Shown here one piece after another: positions 44,902 to 55,209 of a stretch of DNA of 64,000 bases (positions are counted from its first letter, which is position 1; every line of letters begins with the position of its first letter). This DNA comes from Candidatus Woesearchaeota archaeon (GTDB taxonomy: Archaea; Nanobdellota; Nanobdellia; Woesearchaeales; UBA10216), in the NCBI GenBank assembly GCA_016180085.1, contig JACPBX010000003.1, positions 83,582 to 147,581 of the forward strand, given 5' to 3'. The notes beneath the pieces were generated by a model. That model searched no databases, was not told the origin of the DNA, and worked only from the letters and a program-made list of their open reading frames with translations. Position numbers and translations under genes: made by a program.

Positions 44902-46713
44902 ATGGGGGAGAGTAAGGATGAGGAAGGGGTCAGTGTAAATGCTGCCTCGGTTGGTCCGGCTGGCTCCGGTGCTGGCCTCAGTAGTCTCCGTGTAAGTCCT
45001 AAGGTTCTCACTGTTGCAGCCGTTGCAGCGCTCTTTATTGTTTCGCTTTATCTCTGGACTCTGCCTTTCCGGGAGAACAGGCTGCCTTTTGGAGAGGGCG
45101 ATTCAGCTTGGCACTTCGCTATTGGCGATGAGATATCATCATCTGATAAGGCAACCTTCAGGCTTCCTTACTATGTTGGGGTGTGGTATTATGGCTTCAA
45201 CAGAATCCTGGGGCCTTTCGCCCTGGAATACCCTCCCCCAAACCATGTCAACTACGCCCTGATGCAGTTTTTTGGGGGTGAGCGCTTCATTCCTGTCTTC
45301 ATTTACAGGGCAGTGGCAAGCTTCCTTGGCGTGTTTTCCGTTTTTTTCCTTTTGTCAAGGCTTTTTGGCGTGTTGCCTGCTTTCATTGCAGGGCTGGGCC
45401 TGGTCTTCTCTTTTAGGGAGCAGATGATCTTCCTCTGGGGGCAGCAGCCCACCCTTGTATCCCTGATAATTATGCCTGTCGTGCTTTACTCGTGGTATAG
45501 CTATTTGGTCTCTTATTACGCAGCAGGCGAAAGGGGTGAAAGAAGGGTTTACCTTTATCTCGCCTTTGCCCTTCTTGCTTCCCAGTTCATGCTGCACATT
45601 CAGGGCTTCCTTGCAAGCCTGTTGGTTCTCGGCATTTTTACTGCAGTGATGGCTGCGAAGTTCAGGAAGCTTCCTGTTTCTAGGAGCAACCTTGTCCCCT
45701 TTGCTGCTGCTTTGGTGGCTTTCTCAGCTGTCGTTGCCCCTTTCGCCCCGATTTACTTGGGAGCGCCTTCTGATGTTCCACCGGTTTCATCGGTTGAAAG
45801 GCTGATGCAGTGGAACATTCCACACAACCTTGTTTCCGGCAGCTTCCCTGAGCCTTTCGTGCTTTTTTCACATGAGTATGCGTTTCCTGTCAGGCTTTTC
45901 CTTTTTGCGGGAATACTGCTGCTTATTGCAAGGGCATTTCTCATCAGGCCCAATTACAGGGAGCTGATGCTTGTCAGCTGGCTTGCTGGGCTGTACATCA
46001 TTTTCCACCTTGATGTTTTTGGCATACTTGACCAGGGCAGGGTCGCCAGGATGCAGGTGATAGAACCCGCATTGTTCTTCTCACTGGCTGCCTTAAGCGT
46101 TGTATGGCTTCCGCAGACCGTTTCCTCTATTCTGAAGCTGGGCGCCAGGTTTGTTCCTGCTGCAAATGCAGCGAAATACATCCTTGCCGCTGTCCTGGTT
46201 CTTGCTTTGTTAGGCGGCGGGTGGAGTTCCACTCAGGCAAGGCTGAAGGGCGCTTACGGCGGCCTTGAAAGGATTACGCCTCTCCAGGCAGAGTTTGCAG
46301 CTGGAGTCCTTCATTCGCTTCCGGAAAAAGCATTCATCTACGACCCTGTTCTGCCGAATGTTGGCAGCTTTTCTTACACCACCTGGCGCTATCCGAAGAT
46401 GAGGTGGATGCTGGCCATCAGCCAGCGTTATGTGGGCAGGGATTTCCCTGATGAGTTTCCGCATAAAATTGCCGACCCGAGCGAGGTTTATGTCCTGTTT
46501 GACTACTCTGACCTTGCCCTTCTGGCATCCTCTTCGGACCAGGGCACCAAGCAGCTTGGGCTGGCCTTGGCCAATGAGCTGCAGGCTGTTGAGCTTCGCC
46601 TGTTCAACAACAGCATTCCATTGTATGATGGCAATAACATGCGCCTTTACAAGTACCCTTACGAACGCCTTACCAACAGCAGCATTAGCAGTTCGGAGGC
46701 AGCTTCAGCATGA
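44902..46713 (+). CDS. Multi-pass GT-C/AglB-N-terminal-like membrane protein
   Basis: PFGEGDSAWH, YPPPNH, WGQQP and a soluble C-terminal domain. Paralog of 47372-49117. Confidence 0.6.
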   Translation: MGESKDEEGVSVNAASVGPAGSGAGLSSLRVSPKVLTVAAVAALFIVSLYLWTLPFRENRLPFGEGDSAWHFAIGDEISSSDKATFRLPYYVGVWYYGFNRILGPFALEYPPPNHVNYALMQFFGGERFIPVFIYRAVASFLGVFSVFFLLSRLFGVLPAFIAGLGLVFSFREQMIFLWGQQPTLVSLIIMPVVLYSWYSYLVSYYAAGERGERRVYLYLAFALLASQFMLHIQGFLASLLVLGIFTAVMAAKFRKLPVSRSNLVPFAAALVAFSAVVAPFAPIYLGAPSDVPPVSSVERLMQWNIPHNLVSGSFPEPFVLFSHEYAFPVRLFLFAGILLLIARAFLIRPNYRELMLVSWLAGLYIIFHLDVFGILDQGRVARMQVIEPALFFSLAALSVVWLPQTVSSILKLGARFVPAANAAKYILAAVLVLALLGGGWSSTQARLKGAYGGLERITPLQAEFAAGVLHSLPEKAFIYDPVLPNVGSFSYTTWRYPKMRWMLAISQRYVGRDFPDEFPHKIADPSEVYVLFDYSDLALLASSSDQGTKQLGLALANELQAVELRLFNNSIPLYDGNNMRLYKYPYERLTNSSISSSEAASA

Positions 46714-47060
46714 CTGGCATCAGGGTTAATCAGCAAGGCGTTGCATGGCTTTTTGCCCTGGCAGCCATAGCTGTGGCCGCATTTGCCCTCTTGGGCATTG
46801 CCGGCTTTCGCACAATTCTTGCGATTGCAGTTTTGTTTGTCATTCCCCCTTTGCTTATCCTGAAAAATGCCAATTTGGATATTGAAGAAAAAATATTCTT
46901 TTCCCTGTTTATTGGGATTGGCATGTTTCCTTTGCTTGCATGGGCGGTTAACCAGGTCCTGCCATCATTGAGGCTTTCGGTCATTGCGGCTTTTGCCCTT
47001 GTTGTTGCTGGCTTTTTCGCGCCCAGAATTTTGAGGAAAGGGCAAGCGAGAGCGCAATGA
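46710..47060 (+). CDS. Small 4-TM membrane protein
   Basis: Coupled to the upstream gene (ATGA). Motif LFVIP...EK. Confidence 0.6.
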   Translation: MTGIRVNQQGVAWLFALAAIAVAAFALLGIAGFRTILAIAVLFVIPPLLILKNANLDIEEKIFFSLFIGIGMFPLLAWAVNQVLPSLRLSVIAAFALVVAGFFAPRILRKGQARAQ

Positions 47061-47388
47061 CTGCAGCTGGGAGCAGTATTGTCTGGTTCTGTATTTTCAG
47101 CCCTGCAAGCCCCAGGTAATAGCTTGCTACTCCGCTTACCGCCATGGCAGCAACAGTGCCTGCAACAGTCCTTTCCACAAAGCCAAGCTTTTCCCTCCAG
47201 TAAAAGGTCAGTGCGTAGCCTGGAATCACAAACAGCCAGAAGAGGGATGCTGTTGTTTTTACTACTTCAATCAGCCCTTCTTTGTAGTAGGCTATCTTGA
47301 AAATGATTGTCGCAGCAATGAACGCAGCAACGGCAAATTTCGCTTCCCTTTTTAGCTCAGCCAGGCCGTAGTCAGGCAATGCAGTCAC
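46981..47388 (-). CDS. Small 4-TM membrane protein (paralog of 46710-47060)
   Basis: LFVIPG...FVER. Overlaps the stop of the upstream GT-C gene. Confidence 0.6.
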   Translation of the reverse strand: MTALPDYGLAELKREAKFAVAAFIAATIIFKIAYYKEGLIEVVKTTASLFWLFVIPGYALTFYWREKLGFVERTVAGTVAAMAVSGVASYYLGLAGLKIQNQTILLPAAVIALSLALSSKFWARKSQQQQGQKPQ

Positions 47389-49117
47389 CCCCGATGCCGT
47401 TGTTCCTGAGCACAGTCAGGTACTGGTTTTCATATTCGGCGCTCATGTTTGCATTGAGGAACTGTTGTATCAGGTAAAGGCTTGCCTGCTGCAGCGCAGG
47501 CTGTGGTGAAGACCTGTCTATCAGGTAATAGTCTGCGCTGCAAATGTCCACAGGGCCCCTGATTACGGTGTCCTGCGTGTGCTGCCCGAAGCTGAACAGG
47601 CCTTTCCTGTACGGCAGGCCTGAGCCGCTGTCTGAGGTATAAGTTACTGTCAGCATTCTGTCAAACTTTCCTGTAGTGATGAGCTTATTTATGGCCTCTG
47701 CAAACTCCGGTATGTCAAGGAAGTAGTTTTTTCTTTCAGTGTTGTATAGAACAGATGTCTGGCTGTACATCAGGCTAAATGGGACATACACTGTTGCCTC
47801 CTTTGGCGTGTTGTCCGCAATCCACCTCATCGCTTCCCAGTGCTCCTTCGTCATGCCGCCGCCTGATGTTGGCTCATAGTAAACAGCCAGGACAGCTGCG
47901 CCCAGCAATGCTGTGATTGCAGCTGCAGCAATAAACATGTTAAACTTTTTCAGGACAGGGCTTAGGAACAGCCGCACCAGCTGGTAGATGCCAAACCCTG
48001 CGAGAGGCGCGAGTGTTATTGGCCAGAAAAGCCTTGTCTGGAATGACCTGAGCCCGAATCCCGCATAAGTTCCCAGGCCGGCCAGTAGCATGTAGCCCGA
48101 AAAAAGCAGCGCCAAAAGCTTCGGGCTTGAAAATACCCTTTCAAGCTCGTCCCTTTTTTGCAGGACAAACAGCACAGCAAAAACAAGCCCTGCAATGATT
48201 GCAATCAGCATAAACCCGAAAGTAGTCGGGAAAACAGTGGCTGCCGGGAAGCTTGCACTTACGGTTTCAACATTGAAGCGGTAGCCTTGCATTTTTAGCC
48301 AGATGCCTATGAACAGCGGCCAGAAATAAAGCGTGGGTATTATCGCCAGGATGAGGCCTGTAAGGATTTTCCTGTTCTCCTGGAAGAAAATCTTCAGCCC
48401 TGCAAGCTTGTGTTTTGCTAAATTTGCTGCCAAAAGCACAGCAAAGGCTGCAGAAAGCAGTATGCCTAAAAAAAGCGTTTCTGACGTGTGCGTCATTATC
48501 GTTCCTGCGAGCGGCATTGCCAGCAGAAGGTAGCCCCTCGGCAGCTCGAGCTTGGTCAGCGCCCAGGCTGTTGTTGCCAAAAAAAGGCTTGAGAATGCAA
48601 AGGGCATTTGCCCGAAAGTCGCCATGCCAAGAAACGGCTTTCCTGTTGCTGCGAACAGTGTTAGTGGCAGAGCAAGCATGCCGACATGCCTGCCCAGGCT
48701 TTTGGCAATGTGGTAGGCCACAAGTGCCGCAAGTGCAAGGGCCAGGCCTATGACAAGCATCAGCGAATCATAACTTGCCTGTCCGCTAAGGTTTGACAAA
48801 AGAGCTGTTACGTGGTAAGTTACCGGCGGGTAAAACCCGAGCACATCCTTGAGCCCGGCCATCATGTACGGCGCTTCTGCCCTGTACTGCCCCATCTGCT
48901 TTATGGCTTCAGCCCTTGCCTGGTGCTGGTAGGAATCGCTTGCCCCATACCCAACAGGATAGTCATGGTTTATTTTGTGCCCTGAAGCGGTTCCAACCCC
49001 AAGAAAAAGTATTGCAGTGAAGAACGCAGCAAGGATGGCAACCTCAATAAGGCCTTCTACCCCTTTCGCGTTGCCTGCCGTATTGCCTGCTTCTCCTGCT
49101 TTTTCCTCTTCAGCCAT
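47372..49117 (-). CDS. Multi-pass GT-C/AglB-N-terminal-like membrane protein
   Basis: YPVGYGASDSYQH, YPPVTYH, FGQMP, HTSE and C-terminal WEAMRWIADNTP. Confidence 0.65.
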   Translation of the reverse strand: MAEEEKAGEAGNTAGNAKGVEGLIEVAILAAFFTAILFLGVGTASGHKINHDYPVGYGASDSYQHQARAEAIKQMGQYRAEAPYMMAGLKDVLGFYPPVTYHVTALLSNLSGQASYDSLMLVIGLALALAALVAYHIAKSLGRHVGMLALPLTLFAATGKPFLGMATFGQMPFAFSSLFLATTAWALTKLELPRGYLLLAMPLAGTIMTHTSETLFLGILLSAAFAVLLAANLAKHKLAGLKIFFQENRKILTGLILAIIPTLYFWPLFIGIWLKMQGYRFNVETVSASFPAATVFPTTFGFMLIAIIAGLVFAVLFVLQKRDELERVFSSPKLLALLFSGYMLLAGLGTYAGFGLRSFQTRLFWPITLAPLAGFGIYQLVRLFLSPVLKKFNMFIAAAAITALLGAAVLAVYYEPTSGGGMTKEHWEAMRWIADNTPKEATVYVPFSLMYSQTSVLYNTERKNYFLDIPEFAEAINKLITTGKFDRMLTVTYTSDSGSGLPYRKGLFSFGQHTQDTVIRGPVDICSADYYLIDRSSPQPALQQASLYLIQQFLNANMSAEYENQYLTVLRNNGIGGDCIA

Positions 49118-49167: not shown

Positions 49168-51573
49168 TCACTTGCCTGCGCTTTTAACAATCTTGACTGT
49201 GGCAGCAGCGAACTCATTCACTTTCCCTTTTTCCACAAGGATTCCCTTCTTTAGCACCTCAGGGTGTGAGCCAATCCTGAACGCAATTGCAGGCTTTCCG
49301 ACAGCGTTTGCCTCGCAATTATGTATTGCACCTTGTAACGTTGTATAACTTCGGTCTTTGCTTACTTCTATGTTGCAAACAGGACCATTGTAGGCCTTGT
49401 CCTGTATGCGGCGGATTTGGGTGTAGAAGTACCTGTCATCAAGCCAGTAACGGTTATGTGCCCCTCGGGCTTTATTAGTTTGGCACCTTTCTCCCAGGAT
49501 GTTGCAAAAAGCATGTTTGTATTGTCCGGTCACGCTTAAATTGTACTCTATGCCTTTATCTCCCCTGTTGGCAACATGAATATTGCAACCAATTCCTAAT
49601 CGGAAAAGCACGTCCCGTATCTGTTCCGCTAATTTTTGTGAAGCTGTGCTAAATGAAACAATCGTATTGCCTTTGGCATCGTTGAAAACGCAGCCGTCTC
49701 CTCTCCACAACCCCTTGACAAGCTCTTTTAGTTTATGTGGTGGCAGCCTAAGGAACTCGGCAGGAATCTGTTTGTTTTTAGCACCAGTCTCTCCTAAAGC
49801 TGAGAAAAGCCTGTTGAGCAGTTGTGAGGTGAAGAATATGCGGCAGCCGTTCTTTTTTATCTCACGATAACCTTCTATATCAAAAATTCTTTTTACCAGT
49901 GTTAAGACGTCATTTTGGTATGTTTGCTCGCCTGCATGAAACGAAAAGATTAGTGTTGATTTTGTCTTTGAAGCGTGTCCTTCAGACAGGTAGTAGCCAA
50001 ACAAGCGAAGGAAGTCACCATTAACTCTTACTTTGGTTGGTACAGAAATTTTTGCTCGTGGAACGTACCTCGCCTTTTTTAAATAAGCGCTGATTAAGAA
50101 ACGTTTGGATAGGCTTAGTTGGTTGGGAATATTATTTAGGTAGCGATATATTGCATTCTTACTTAGGCGCAATTTTTTCCCGATCGCTTCGTAGGTTTCT
50201 TTACCACGTTCGGTCTTCCTGCTGTATCTATAAAAAAGCCTGTCGTTTCCCTCAATTGTGCCGGGCAAATACCGTTTTAGATTTAAATATGTCTTATCAA
50301 CTATTTTGTTGTTATACGGGTAAATAAGTACATCCTTCTCATTTAATTGTTCTGCTTCTATCCATTCAGGCCGATACAGCAAATGGTACTTTTTTAAGCA
50401 CTTATGATTTGGTTTGCAAGTTCTGTTTGACTTGCACATCTTTGTTCGTAGCGCATAAATCCTGTGCTCTGGAGTTATTTCGAGCGGTATGTTACAGCCA
50501 TACACCCTGATGCTTTTTAACTTTCCTCTGTAAGCTCTTCTTGAGACAGCAGTAATAAGTTCTTCTCTGCCAAGGTGTGTAGTTACCTTATCTCCTGCTT
50601 TAAGGTTGCCTATTGCAGTATAGCCGTCATAGCATTTAATCAGGGATTTTGGCGTAAGACAAAGTGGAATATTGAACCCTTCCCACATGCTTGCAGTCAC
50701 ATATGCATCGCATGCGCCGTAGTAAGCTGGCAGTTCTTTGTCAGCAACAAATCCCGTGAATGCCACTCCTCCGATTTCCGCAGCCGTTTTTTGCAGCTGC
50801 CTTGAATATTTCGGAAAGGTATGCTTTCCGACAACAACCAGGGTTGCGGCAGGGATTTTCTCTTTTACCAGCTTAAACGCCTGAAGCAGCAGGTGAACTC
50901 CTTTATGGGGTGATATCCTTCCAACGTATAACAGCACCGGCTTCCTCAGGTTGTGTTTTTTCACAACCGCAGCAATCTCTTTTTTATATTTCGCAGCCGC
51001 ATTTTTATTGAACCTTTTTGTGTCTATCTTCACATACTTGACCTGGCTGTTGAGGCCGGTTTCCTTTTTCAGCTCGCTGCCGCAGAACTTGCTTATCGAT
51101 ATTGCCGCATCAGCATTCTTAACGGTTATTTTTGTGAATGCAGCGAATATCTTCATGTAAACCCTCTCAAAAAACCCGTCAAAAAGCTGCGGGTAGGCAA
51201 CTCCAACATCATAATAAACGTATTTCAGCCTCTGCCCCATTCTTTTCCTTGCCAGCATCGCAGGCAATGTCATCGGGTAAAGAAAGCTGATTGCCTTATC
51301 AAACCCGCTCAGCCTGTTGACAATTCTTATTACCTTCGCAGCATCAAGGAAGAAGAGTAATCTGTAAATTCTCTCCAGCAGCGGCTGCTTTGGCATTCCC
51401 AGCACTTCAACAGCTATGCCTTTCTTTTGCAGCTGCAGCGTATCAAAATCGGTTTTGAAAGTTATTACTGTAACATCATTCTTGCCTGCTGCCAGCTCTG
51501 TCGCTTCATTGTAAACTACCCTGTCAGGACCGGAGAACTTCGAGAAGGTTGGAGTGAGTATTGCGATGTTCAT
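49168..51573 (-). CDS. GT4 glycosyltransferase interrupted by an intein (353-aa extein)
   Basis: SGPDRVV, YVGRISPHKG; EGFNIPL|CEANAVGKP is reconstituted after removing the intein. Confidence 0.9.
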   Translation of the reverse strand: MNIAILTPTFSKFSGPDRVVYNEATELAAGKNDVTVITFKTDFDTLQLQKKGIAVEVLGMPKQPLLERIYRLLFFLDAAKVIRIVNRLSGFDKAISFLYPMTLPAMLARKRMGQRLKYVYYDVGVAYPQLFDGFFERVYMKIFAAFTKITVKNADAAISISKFCGSELKKETGLNSQVKYVKIDTKRFNKNAAAKYKKEIAAVVKKHNLRKPVLLYVGRISPHKGVHLLLQAFKLVKEKIPAATLVVVGKHTFPKYSRQLQKTAAEIGGVAFTGFVADKELPAYYGACDAYVTASMWEGFNIPLCLTPKSLIKCYDGYTAIGNLKAGDKVTTHLGREELITAVSRRAYRGKLKSIRVYGCNIPLEITPEHRIYALRTKMCKSNRTCKPNHKCLKKYHLLYRPEWIEAEQLNEKDVLIYPYNNKIVDKTYLNLKRYLPGTIEGNDRLFYRYSRKTERGKETYEAIGKKLRLSKNAIYRYLNNIPNQLSLSKRFLISAYLKKARYVPRAKISVPTKVRVNGDFLRLFGYYLSEGHASKTKSTLIFSFHAGEQTYQNDVLTLVKRIFDIEGYREIKKNGCRIFFTSQLLNRLFSALGETGAKNKQIPAEFLRLPPHKLKELVKGLWRGDGCVFNDAKGNTIVSFSTASQKLAEQIRDVLFRLGIGCNIHVANRGDKGIEYNLSVTGQYKHAFCNILGERCQTNKARGAHNRYWLDDRYFYTQIRRIQDKAYNGPVCNIEVSKDRSYTTLQGAIHNCEANAVGKPAIAFRIGSHPEVLKKGILVEKGKVNEFAAATVKIVKSAGK
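49318..50661 (-). mobile_element. Intein with LAGLIDADG homing endonuclease and HTH insert (448 aa)
   Basis: Block A CLTPKSLI, block B ITPEH, LAGLIDADG-like GYYLSEG and KGLWRGDG, C-terminal IHN followed by Cys+1. Confidence 0.92.
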
Positions 51574-54027: not shown

Positions 54028-55209
54028 TTAAAGCTTTTTGTATAGCAGCCCCGTGTAAGCGGACAGGTAATTTCTCACGTTTTCCTCAATCGTGAACTTT
54101 CTCAGCTTTGTCCTGTGGCACTTGCCATGAAACATGCCCACAACAGCATCTGCTATCTCCATGCTGTTATTTGGCTCAACAAGGATGTGCTTTCCGCTGA
54201 CAACTTCGGGCAATGATGTGGTGTTGCTTGCGACGATTGGCTTTCCCATAGCAGCCGCTTCAGCAGCAGTGTAGCCAAACCCTTCGCTTATTGATGGCAC
54301 AACAACGCAGTCTGCCGCCTTTATGTAGCTTGGCAGTTCGGAATGGGCGACAGGCTCAACGTTTATTATTCTGCCCTCAAGTTGCAGTTTTTTTATCAGT
54401 TGCATCAGCTGCGAATATTTTTTCGCGTATTGTTTGTCGCGGCTTAGCAGCAGCATCATTCTCGCATTTGGAATTTTTTGGCTTATATCCTTCATCGCAG
54501 TTATTGCATGCTCGATTCCCTTGCTTGTGCCCGGCCTTCCGTAAACGAGCAGCACATAATTTCCCAAGTCGCCTTTGGCGACTGGGCCCAATCGTGCTTT
54601 TGCACGATTTGGGTTCTGCAGCGAGTATTTTTTCCTTATCTTTTCGCCGCTGTATTTTTTAGGGTTAAAGTGCCCATAATCTACGCCGTTGTATATGGTG
54701 ATGGCGTTTTTCTTCCCTATCCTCAATAGTTGTTGCCGTGTTGAGTTTGAGACTGCAACGTACTTATCGACGGCAGGAAGCAGGTAGAGGAATCTTTCGA
54801 ACATGTCGTGAAGGAAAACCTTGACTGGGTTAAAGTCCGTGTACTCCCTCCATTTACCGACCCATACCTCATGAACAGTCACAATGAGGGGCTTTCGTGC
54901 AAATTTTGCAGCCACCCATGCGGGAAAGAAGCCGTTAAAGGTTGTTGTGTGCACGATGTCCGCTTTTTTGGCAGAGGCAATGGCAGCCGGTATAGAAAAA
55001 AACGTGAACAGCTCCCTGCTTCCGAAGCAGCTCACCCTTTTCACTTTCACCCCATTGATTGTTTCCTCTGCAGCCGTGCCTTTGAGCCTATGGGTTATTA
55101 TCGTTGCAGTATGGCCTCTTTTGACGAGTCCCTCTGCAAGGTTCCTGAAAACAACCTCAACCCCGCCTATGTGCGGCAGGTAGTTTTCTATCACGAAAAG
55201 TATGTTCAT
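54028..55209 (-). CDS. GT4 glycosyltransferase
   Basis: YLPHIGGVE, TVHE, YNGVD, YGRPGTSKG, EGFGYTAAE (EX7E). Confidence 0.9.
   Translation of the reverse strand: MNILFVIENYLPHIGGVEVVFRNLAEGLVKRGHTATIITHRLKGTAAEETINGVKVKRVSCFGSRELFTFFSIPAAIASAKKADIVHTTTFNGFFPAWVAAKFARKPLIVTVHEVWVGKWREYTDFNPVKVFLHDMFERFLYLLPAVDKYVAVSNSTRQQLLRIGKKNAITIYNGVDYGHFNPKKYSGEKIRKKYSLQNPNRAKARLGPVAKGDLGNYVLLVYGRPGTSKGIEHAITAMKDISQKIPNARMMLLLSRDKQYAKKYSQLMQLIKKLQLEGRIINVEPVAHSELPSYIKAADCVVVPSISEGFGYTAAEAAAMGKPIVASNTTSLPEVVSGKHILVEPNNSMEIADAVVGMFHGKCHRTKLRKFTIEENVRNYLSAYTGLLYKKL

Follow-up and report, generated by a model that had tools for sequence, protein, structure and literature searches.

In published surveys, the hosts of inteins are mainly replication, repair, and ATPase proteins. 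The inteins whose structures have been solved, namely PI-TkoII (2cw7), TliVMA and PhoVMA (7qsu, 7qss, and 7qst; PMC8966425), PI-SceI (1vde), and PI-PfuI (1dq3), interrupt a V-ATPase, a DNA polymerase, or a ribonucleotide reductase (RNR); each is built of a Hint splicing domain into which a LAGLIDADG endonuclease with two motifs is nested, with accessory parts for DNA binding, and they have in common Cys1, a TxxH block, a terminal His-Asn pair, and a +1 nucleophile. An intein with this construction and these residues is described here in a 64,000-nucleotide stretch of DNA (the window) from a Candidatus Woesearchaeota archaeon (GenBank assembly GCA_016180085.1, contig JACPBX010000003.1, positions 83,582 to 147,581 of the forward strand). 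Its host, in contrast to those of the solved inteins, is a glycosyltransferase of the GT4 family; it is only 11–16% identical to these inteins in sequence, and it possesses a Cys-rich insert and a helix-turn-helix (HTH)-like module of its own. Very likely, it is a selfish and mobile element: a class-1 intein, equipped with a LAGLIDADG homing endonuclease of its own and lodged in the donor-binding EX7E motif of the enzyme.

Outside the GT4 group, the nearest relatives in sequence are the inteins in the iron–sulfur (Fe-S) scaffold proteins IscU/NifU of DPANN archaea (P0007–P0020). These inteins are of the same type, occur in similar organisms, and are 26–37% identical to the present one over the full length; they differ from it in their host, in the context of their +1 residue (CGD), in being without the Cys-rich insert, and in forming a clade of their own on the intein tree. 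A published archaeal case of an intein in an enzyme of the envelope and sugar metabolism (class M of the Clusters of Orthologous Groups) is that in the UDP-glucose dehydrogenase of Euryarchaeota (PMC4760082), and an intein in a UDP-glucose dehydrogenase (P0031) is also among the distant matches of the present intein; the host in the published case, however, is a sugar-nucleotide dehydrogenase interrupted at an unrelated site, whereas the host here is a transferase. Novikova (2016; PMC4760082) presents this dehydrogenase as an envelope-related archaeal intein host and names no glycosyltransferase. Closer to the present case are inteins in GT4 proteins from metagenomes (P0154, P0163, P0278, P0239, P0218, and P0221), which share the host superfamily and lie at the same or neighboring points of EX7E, but which reside in other GT4 subfamilies, belong to other intein lineages, fall outside the clade formed by the present intein and its four orthologues, and are at most 39% identical to it. 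A search of the literature returned no paper with a glycosyltransferase as an intein host, the intein reviews found being silent on such hosts, and no paper that combines inteins with EX7E; two papers that mention both inteins and glycosyltransferases leave them unconnected.

The precursor gene (49168..51573, minus strand) is a single frame with no stop through 801 codons (protein P0001). Pfam finds Glyco_transf_4 at residues 15–176 and Glycos_transf_1 at residues 204–304, where the latter match breaks at profile position 109 of 172 and resumes as a second stretch beyond the insert; in between lie Hint_2 (305–368) and LAGLIDADG_3 (617–694, E = 1.8e-12; 47.8 bits against a cut-off of 22.5). The host thus has the GT-B architecture, with a Glyco_transf_4 N-domain and a Glycos_transf_1 C-domain. 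The N-extein (aa 1–304; 50662..51573, minus strand) comprises the GT-B N-terminal domain and the start of the C-terminal Rossmann domain, and ends in SMWEGFNIPL. The C-extein (49168..49317, minus strand) has 49 residues and a stop codon; it begins with Cys753, which is both the +1 nucleophile and x7 of EX7E, and with Glu754, the second Glu of the motif, and it can be aligned with the C-terminal end of intein-free orthologues. The insertion point, therefore, is between x6 and x7, and when the insert is taken out, WEGFNIPL joins CEANAVGKP to give E298-GFNIPLC-E754, which is an exact EX7E. The first-pass annotation, made from the sequence alone, had placed the intein at 49318–50661 (aa 305–752), splitting this motif, and had pointed to a second, intein-free GT4 gene starting at 54028 as a reference; the coordinates proved exact in both DNA and translation, and the gene in question (54028–55209) does encode EGFGYTAAE at the homologous place.

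The two exteins align over their full length with orthologues of around 350 aa, and structure comparison matches an intein-free orthologue to solved GT4 enzymes such as BshA, PimA, and MshA. On the basis of its family, the host is a GT4 retaining glycosyltransferase, and its donor, acceptor, and transferase activity are predictions from that family. In NCBIfam, GT4 families match P0001 only below threshold, with no specific family reaching its cut-off, and the middle part of the protein matches the intein-containing models for Tes, PolII, DnaB, GyrA, and RecA. Purifying selection on the exteins is indicated by nonsynonymous divergence (dN) of 0.19–0.37 with saturated synonymous divergence (dS), together with up to 88% identity to empty orthologues; since synonymous sites are saturated in all pairs, dN alone is usable here and below.

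The intein itself (49318..50661, minus strand) has 448 residues, from Cys1 to Asn448, and is supported by Pfam, alignment, an AlphaFold (AF2) model, and Foldseek; its sequence begins with CLTPKS and ends with GAIHN, after which comes Cys753. None of the splicing and nuclease features that the first-pass annotation had listed (Cys1, TPEH, two LAGLIDADG helices, His-Asn, and Cys+1) is missing. Block B, T-P-E-H (Thr367 and His370; 50464..50475, minus strand), contains T63 and H66 of the intein, which, like Cys1, K297, D322, and N448, are invariant in an alignment of 24 inteins, E227 and H447 being nearly so. The endonuclease domain (aa 510–704; 49462..50046, minus strand), recognized by Pfam LAGLIDADG_3, alignment, and the model, contains on the same strand a first LAGLIDADG motif, LFGYYLSEG, with Glu531 (49978–50019), block D, GAKNKQIP, with Lys601 (49762–49800), and a second LAGLIDADG motif, GLWRGDG, with Asp626 (49693–49740). 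The C-terminal part of the Hint domain (49318..49461, minus strand), with blocks F and G, ends in His751-Asn752 and is modeled as strands over intein residues 411–447. The AF2 model of the intein has a mean pLDDT (the predicted local confidence) of 88.9 and a pTM (the global score) of 0.83, and includes both LAGLIDADG motif helices. Its top Foldseek matches are intein homing endonucleases (PI-TkoII, TliVMA, PhoVMA, PI-SceI, and PI-PfuI, with E values of 1e-14 to 1e-20), and free LAGLIDADG enzymes such as I-DmoI and I-Tsp061I rank after inteins for the endonuclease domain. As modeled, then, this is a class-1 intein with a Hint fold in which the termini are brought together, and its conserved residues identify the nuclease as a single-chain, two-motif LAGLIDADG homing endonuclease for which cleavage and homing are predicted.

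Two parts of the intein distinguish it from the solved ones. The Cys-rich insert, C-x5-C-x3-[H/C]-x-C (C380, C386, H390, and C392; 50398..50436, minus strand), was found in an alignment of the five orthologous alleles, in which the three Cys are invariant, while His occupies position 390 in three alleles and Cys in the other two; it has no counterpart in the 24-intein consensus and forms a loop of the Hint domain in the AF2 model, with a pLDDT of around 75. Because His and Cys alternate at position 390, as metal ligands do, it is a possible zinc knuckle specific to this clade of GT4 inteins. The other part follows the N-terminal portion of the Hint domain and precedes the endonuclease; it is a module of three AF2 helices (intein residues 153–163, 168–175, and 184–196; 50074..50211, minus strand), where Pfam HTH_22, HTH_23, and TetR_N match below threshold only, over the turn and the recognition helix. 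This module is a candidate for an extra DNA-recognition domain and would probably add DNA contacts. A LacI-type HTH match was also seen inside a related GT4-hosted intein, P0194.

The conserved residues allow a conventional course of splicing to be proposed. Cys305 would attack the carbonyl of Leu304 with the assistance of Thr367 and His370, the N-extein would pass to Cys753, Asn752 would cyclize with the help of His751 so as to release the intein, and an S-to-N shift would then yield a normal 353-aa enzyme with the motif E-GFNIPLC-E. The freed 448-aa intein would be a single-chain LAGLIDADG nuclease (Glu531 and Asp626) that cuts intein-less alleles across the EX7E coding sequence, the repair of which would copy the intein in, and successive cycles in which the element invades, descends vertically, and is lost would maintain it in the orthologue family. 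Its presence in EX7E would be explained by this motif being the most strongly conserved target in a GT4 gene and the one least free to mutate, rather than by any use to the cell.

Inteins at the same site were found in four other GT4 orthologues, P0003, P0004, P0005, and P0006 (69%, 58%, 49%, and 48% intein identity, respectively), two of which are named as Candidatus Woesearchaeota glycosyltransferases. The five alleles agree without exception at Cys1, the block B Thr and His, His-Asn, Cys+1, the acidic residue of each LAGLIDADG motif, and the Lys of block D, and conservation is as high in the endonuclease domain (49–71% identity) as in the Hint parts (50–68%). Between pairs of alleles, the dN of the intein is 0.21–0.47 with dS saturated, which indicates purifying selection on the intein protein. 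A search with the N-extein, of the kind that the first-pass annotation had proposed, did recover intein-free orthologues: there were more than 600 matches to shorter proteins, and the best 120 are all intein-free GT4s of around 350 aa and up to 88% identity. At the insertion point, these empty orthologues mostly read EGFDIP-I/A-V-E, Val being usual at +1 and Cys occurring in a few. Those with Cys at x7 (+1) include P0043, P0049, P0056, P0092, and P0096, none of which is sister to any present carrier; these Cys may be scars of a former intein. Two intein-free orthologues from genomes of the same family (loci L014 and L015, genomes G326 and G059) read EGFDIPAVQAQ, with Gln in place of the second Glu, which shows that this Glu is not kept throughout the orthologue group. 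Two other orthologues, P0035 (306 aa, 83% identical) and P0116 (291 aa, 50%), end five residues past WEGFD, inside EX7E, which could be due to a contig end, a frameshift, or another interruption at the intein site.

Among 401 species genomes of the same order, a set that includes the unpublished genomes G316, G206, G121, and G210, the gene is present in 40 and the intein in two (this genome and G167, which encodes P0005). In the extein tree (118 sequences), the five carriers are scattered and each is paired with an empty allele, with support of at least 95 for three of the pairs; the tree requires five changes of state, which is not fewer than with shuffled labels. That five scattered carriers each have an intein-free sister fits a cycle of homing and loss, and the view of the first-pass annotation that this is a LAGLIDADG mobile element is borne out both by this scatter and by the intact nuclease residues. 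The five inteins, on the other hand, form one well-supported clade, distant from all others, in which identities roughly track those of the exteins, so that the element is an old resident of the orthologue family. It is maintained by some mixture of vertical descent, loss, and transfer.

Several observations weigh against a selfish, homing intein. The divergences of the inteins and the exteins are roughly congruent and the intein clade is an old one, identity within it falling to 49%, so that much of the pattern could stem from vertical inheritance and numerous losses instead of recent homing. At +1, the residue in the nearest empty alleles is Val or Ala, and not Cys. Moreover, the 42-bp empty site reconstructed from this gene is only 45–62% identical to those empty alleles for which DNA is available, and 50% identical to the GT4 paralogue at 54028. 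A different explanation takes up such observations: the intein would still splice, but its nuclease would no longer home, and the element would be inherited vertically as a passenger because its imprecise deletion would destroy the active-site motif; loss would then occur only via rare precise deletion or recombination with empty alleles. The tracking of identities, the same grouping in intein and extein alike, ((P0001,P0003),P0004) with P0005 and P0006 apart, the depth of divergence between the alleles (49%), and the lack of near-identical inteins in distant exteins are all in its favor. However, it has to account for the invariance of the Lys of block D and of the residues that serve nuclease catalysis, for an endonuclease domain as conserved as the splicing domain, and for five separate losses or gains on the tree. 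In addition, P0005 and P0006 resemble each other more closely in their inteins (59%, dN 0.32) than in their exteins (56%, dN 0.37), which hints at a transfer. Such a passenger is rather unlikely.

Another explanation is that of a domesticated switch, in which splicing is conditional on redox, metal, or temperature, so that the cell gates its glycosyltransferase post-translationally, with the Cys-rich insert or the pair Cys1/Cys+1 as the possible sensor. An unspliced precursor very probably lacks activity, since the intein keeps the two Glu of the donor-binding EX7E apart. In the model of the precursor, the junctions (298–304 and 752–756) have a pLDDT below 50 while both domains are otherwise confident, which is a weak computational hint in the same direction. 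The clade-specific C-x5-C-x3-[H/C]-x-C insert is conserved, and archaeal inteins controlled by a disulfide are known. A useful switch, however, would be kept more widely than in 2 of the 40 same-order genomes with the gene, and the nearest relative of each carrier does without the intein. Furthermore, Cys1/Cys+1 is the commonest nucleophile pair among inteins, the nuclease is intact, which is the hallmark of a selfish element, and no regulator or sensor is linked to the intein. We therefore regard domestication as very improbable. The proposal of redox-gated glycan synthesis in the first-pass annotation finds no support in a 5% occupancy, in sisters without the element, and in a default pair of Cys. 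The more specific possibility that thiol redox, or zinc acting via the insert or via Cys1/Cys+1, holds a surface-glycan glycosyltransferase inactive until conditions allow its splicing is likewise one to which we would give little credence; if true, the EX7E inteins of GT4s would constitute a layer of post-translational control over envelope glycosylation in small-genome archaea and their viruses. Finally, a dead intein in an inactivated glycosyltransferase gene would be hard to reconcile with a frame open over 801 codons, with the retention of all of the splicing residues in five lineages, and with the purifying selection on the exteins, and is extremely improbable.

The preference for a selfish intein with EX7E as its target is also consistent with what is found in other glycosyltransferases. 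A HMMER scan of 1.84 billion cluster representatives yielded 6318 relatives of the intein, the best 150 of which are all at most 39% identical to it. Glycos_transf_1 is the commonest host domain, occurring in 13 of the 71 representatives scanned with Pfam, and NifU_N is next, with six. A profile made from the intein-free orthologues revealed GT4 exteins in 25 of the best 150 relatives, nine of which were confirmed singly by Pfam. Reading of the junctions places the insertions at no fewer than four points within or next to E1-x7-E9: after x6 (this site and P0154, P0163, and P0278), after x5 (P0239, P0223, P0272, and P0236), after x2 (P0218, P0222, P0245, P0293, and P0029), and just before E1 (P0204, P0221, P0165, P0249, and P0270). 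There is probably a further point three residues past E9 (P0252), and elsewhere in GT4s, insertions occur in the N-domain (P0234 and the first intein of two-intein proteins). Six metagenome proteins of 1270–1420 aa (P0154, P0163, P0165, P0204, P0221, and P0249) are interrupted twice, by an intein in the N-domain and by another located at EX7E or immediately ahead of it. In the intein tree, the other GT4-hosted inteins lie outside the clade of the five orthologues, and the sites designated b and d are scattered; the deep parts of these trees are weakly resolved. These alignments and trees point to a repeated and independent invasion of the EX7E of GT4s by intein lineages, and the fact that different lineages hit the same 12–16 residues of other GT4 families supports the logic of the target. 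Two of the other GT4-hosted intein families were not found in the viral contigs searched for them, and in GenBank phages, related inteins were found only in RNR and tRNA-synthetase, with no glycosyltransferase as host.

A surface-glycan glycosyltransferase had at the outset been considered an atypical host, and so it is when compared with published lists; in sequence space, however, GT4 is the commonest host among the nearest relatives. The search for inteins at this GT4 site found four orthologues and further GT4s, of which the literature searched yielded no description. The intein described here is a textbook element, a new allele or site of a well-known kind, and it belongs with the other GT4/EX7E inteins to a sizeable set for which our literature search found no published description.

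The base composition of the intein differs from that of its surroundings. It has a GC content of 41.1% (41% at third codon positions, GC3), compared with 45.6% (GC3 51%) for the N-extein and 50.0% (GC3 52%) for the C-extein; the genome has 48.7%, and windows of 1344 bp in the genome average 48.8% with a standard deviation of 2.9, which places the intein in the lowest 2%. The direction of the difference noted in the first-pass annotation is therefore right, but the figures given there (27–43% in 60-nucleotide lines versus 50–55% in the flanking genes) exaggerate it, the lines of the intein spanning 25–52%. In all four alleles for which DNA is available, the GC3 of the intein is lower than that of the N-extein by 4–20 points, and by around 10 or more in three of them. 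Since the four are GC-poor relative to their own exteins, this deficit belongs to the element itself and says nothing about when it reached this genome, and the idea that low GC reveals a recent acquisition was rejected.

This genome of 1 Mb contains at least four further LAGLIDADG inteins, which are in LonB, GyrA, RtcB, and a PilB3-like ATPase, and, together with a free-standing LAGLIDADG open reading frame of 231 aa, these map to contigs C20, C22 (18.5–23.5 kb), C15, C29, and C11 of the genome (G000; loci L030–L034). The possibility that the GT4 intein is a paralogous copy of one of them was rejected, the best match within the genome being 26% identical and limited to the nuclease domain.

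The host gene belongs to a cluster of surface-glycan genes in a DPANN archaeon of the Woesearchaeota type. A neighborhood common to filled and empty alleles consists of a second GT4, this GT4, a 581-aa protein with around 7 transmembrane (TM) segments, a 135-aa protein, and a 603-aa protein with around 10 TM segments; one row of this synteny comparison comes from G206 (locus L017). In the window, the neighbors of the GT4 gene are at 47372–49117 (minus strand), 46981–47388 (minus strand), and 44902–46713 (plus strand). The 581-aa and 603-aa proteins belong to no Pfam family, are conserved beside the GT4 in loci L023, L025, and L018, and may be GT-C-type or glycan-export partners.

For the practice of annotation, these results mean that GT4 proteins of 700–1400 aa in DPANN and metagenome bins are being called ‘glycosyltransferase’ with the intein unmentioned. 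For protein engineering, the five natural alleles are new and diverged splicing domains with Cys+1 and small hydrophobic residues at −1. For the biology of inteins, GT4 hosts widen the accepted host range, and EX7E joins P-loops as a clear case, the second, of a short catalytic motif that draws inteins.

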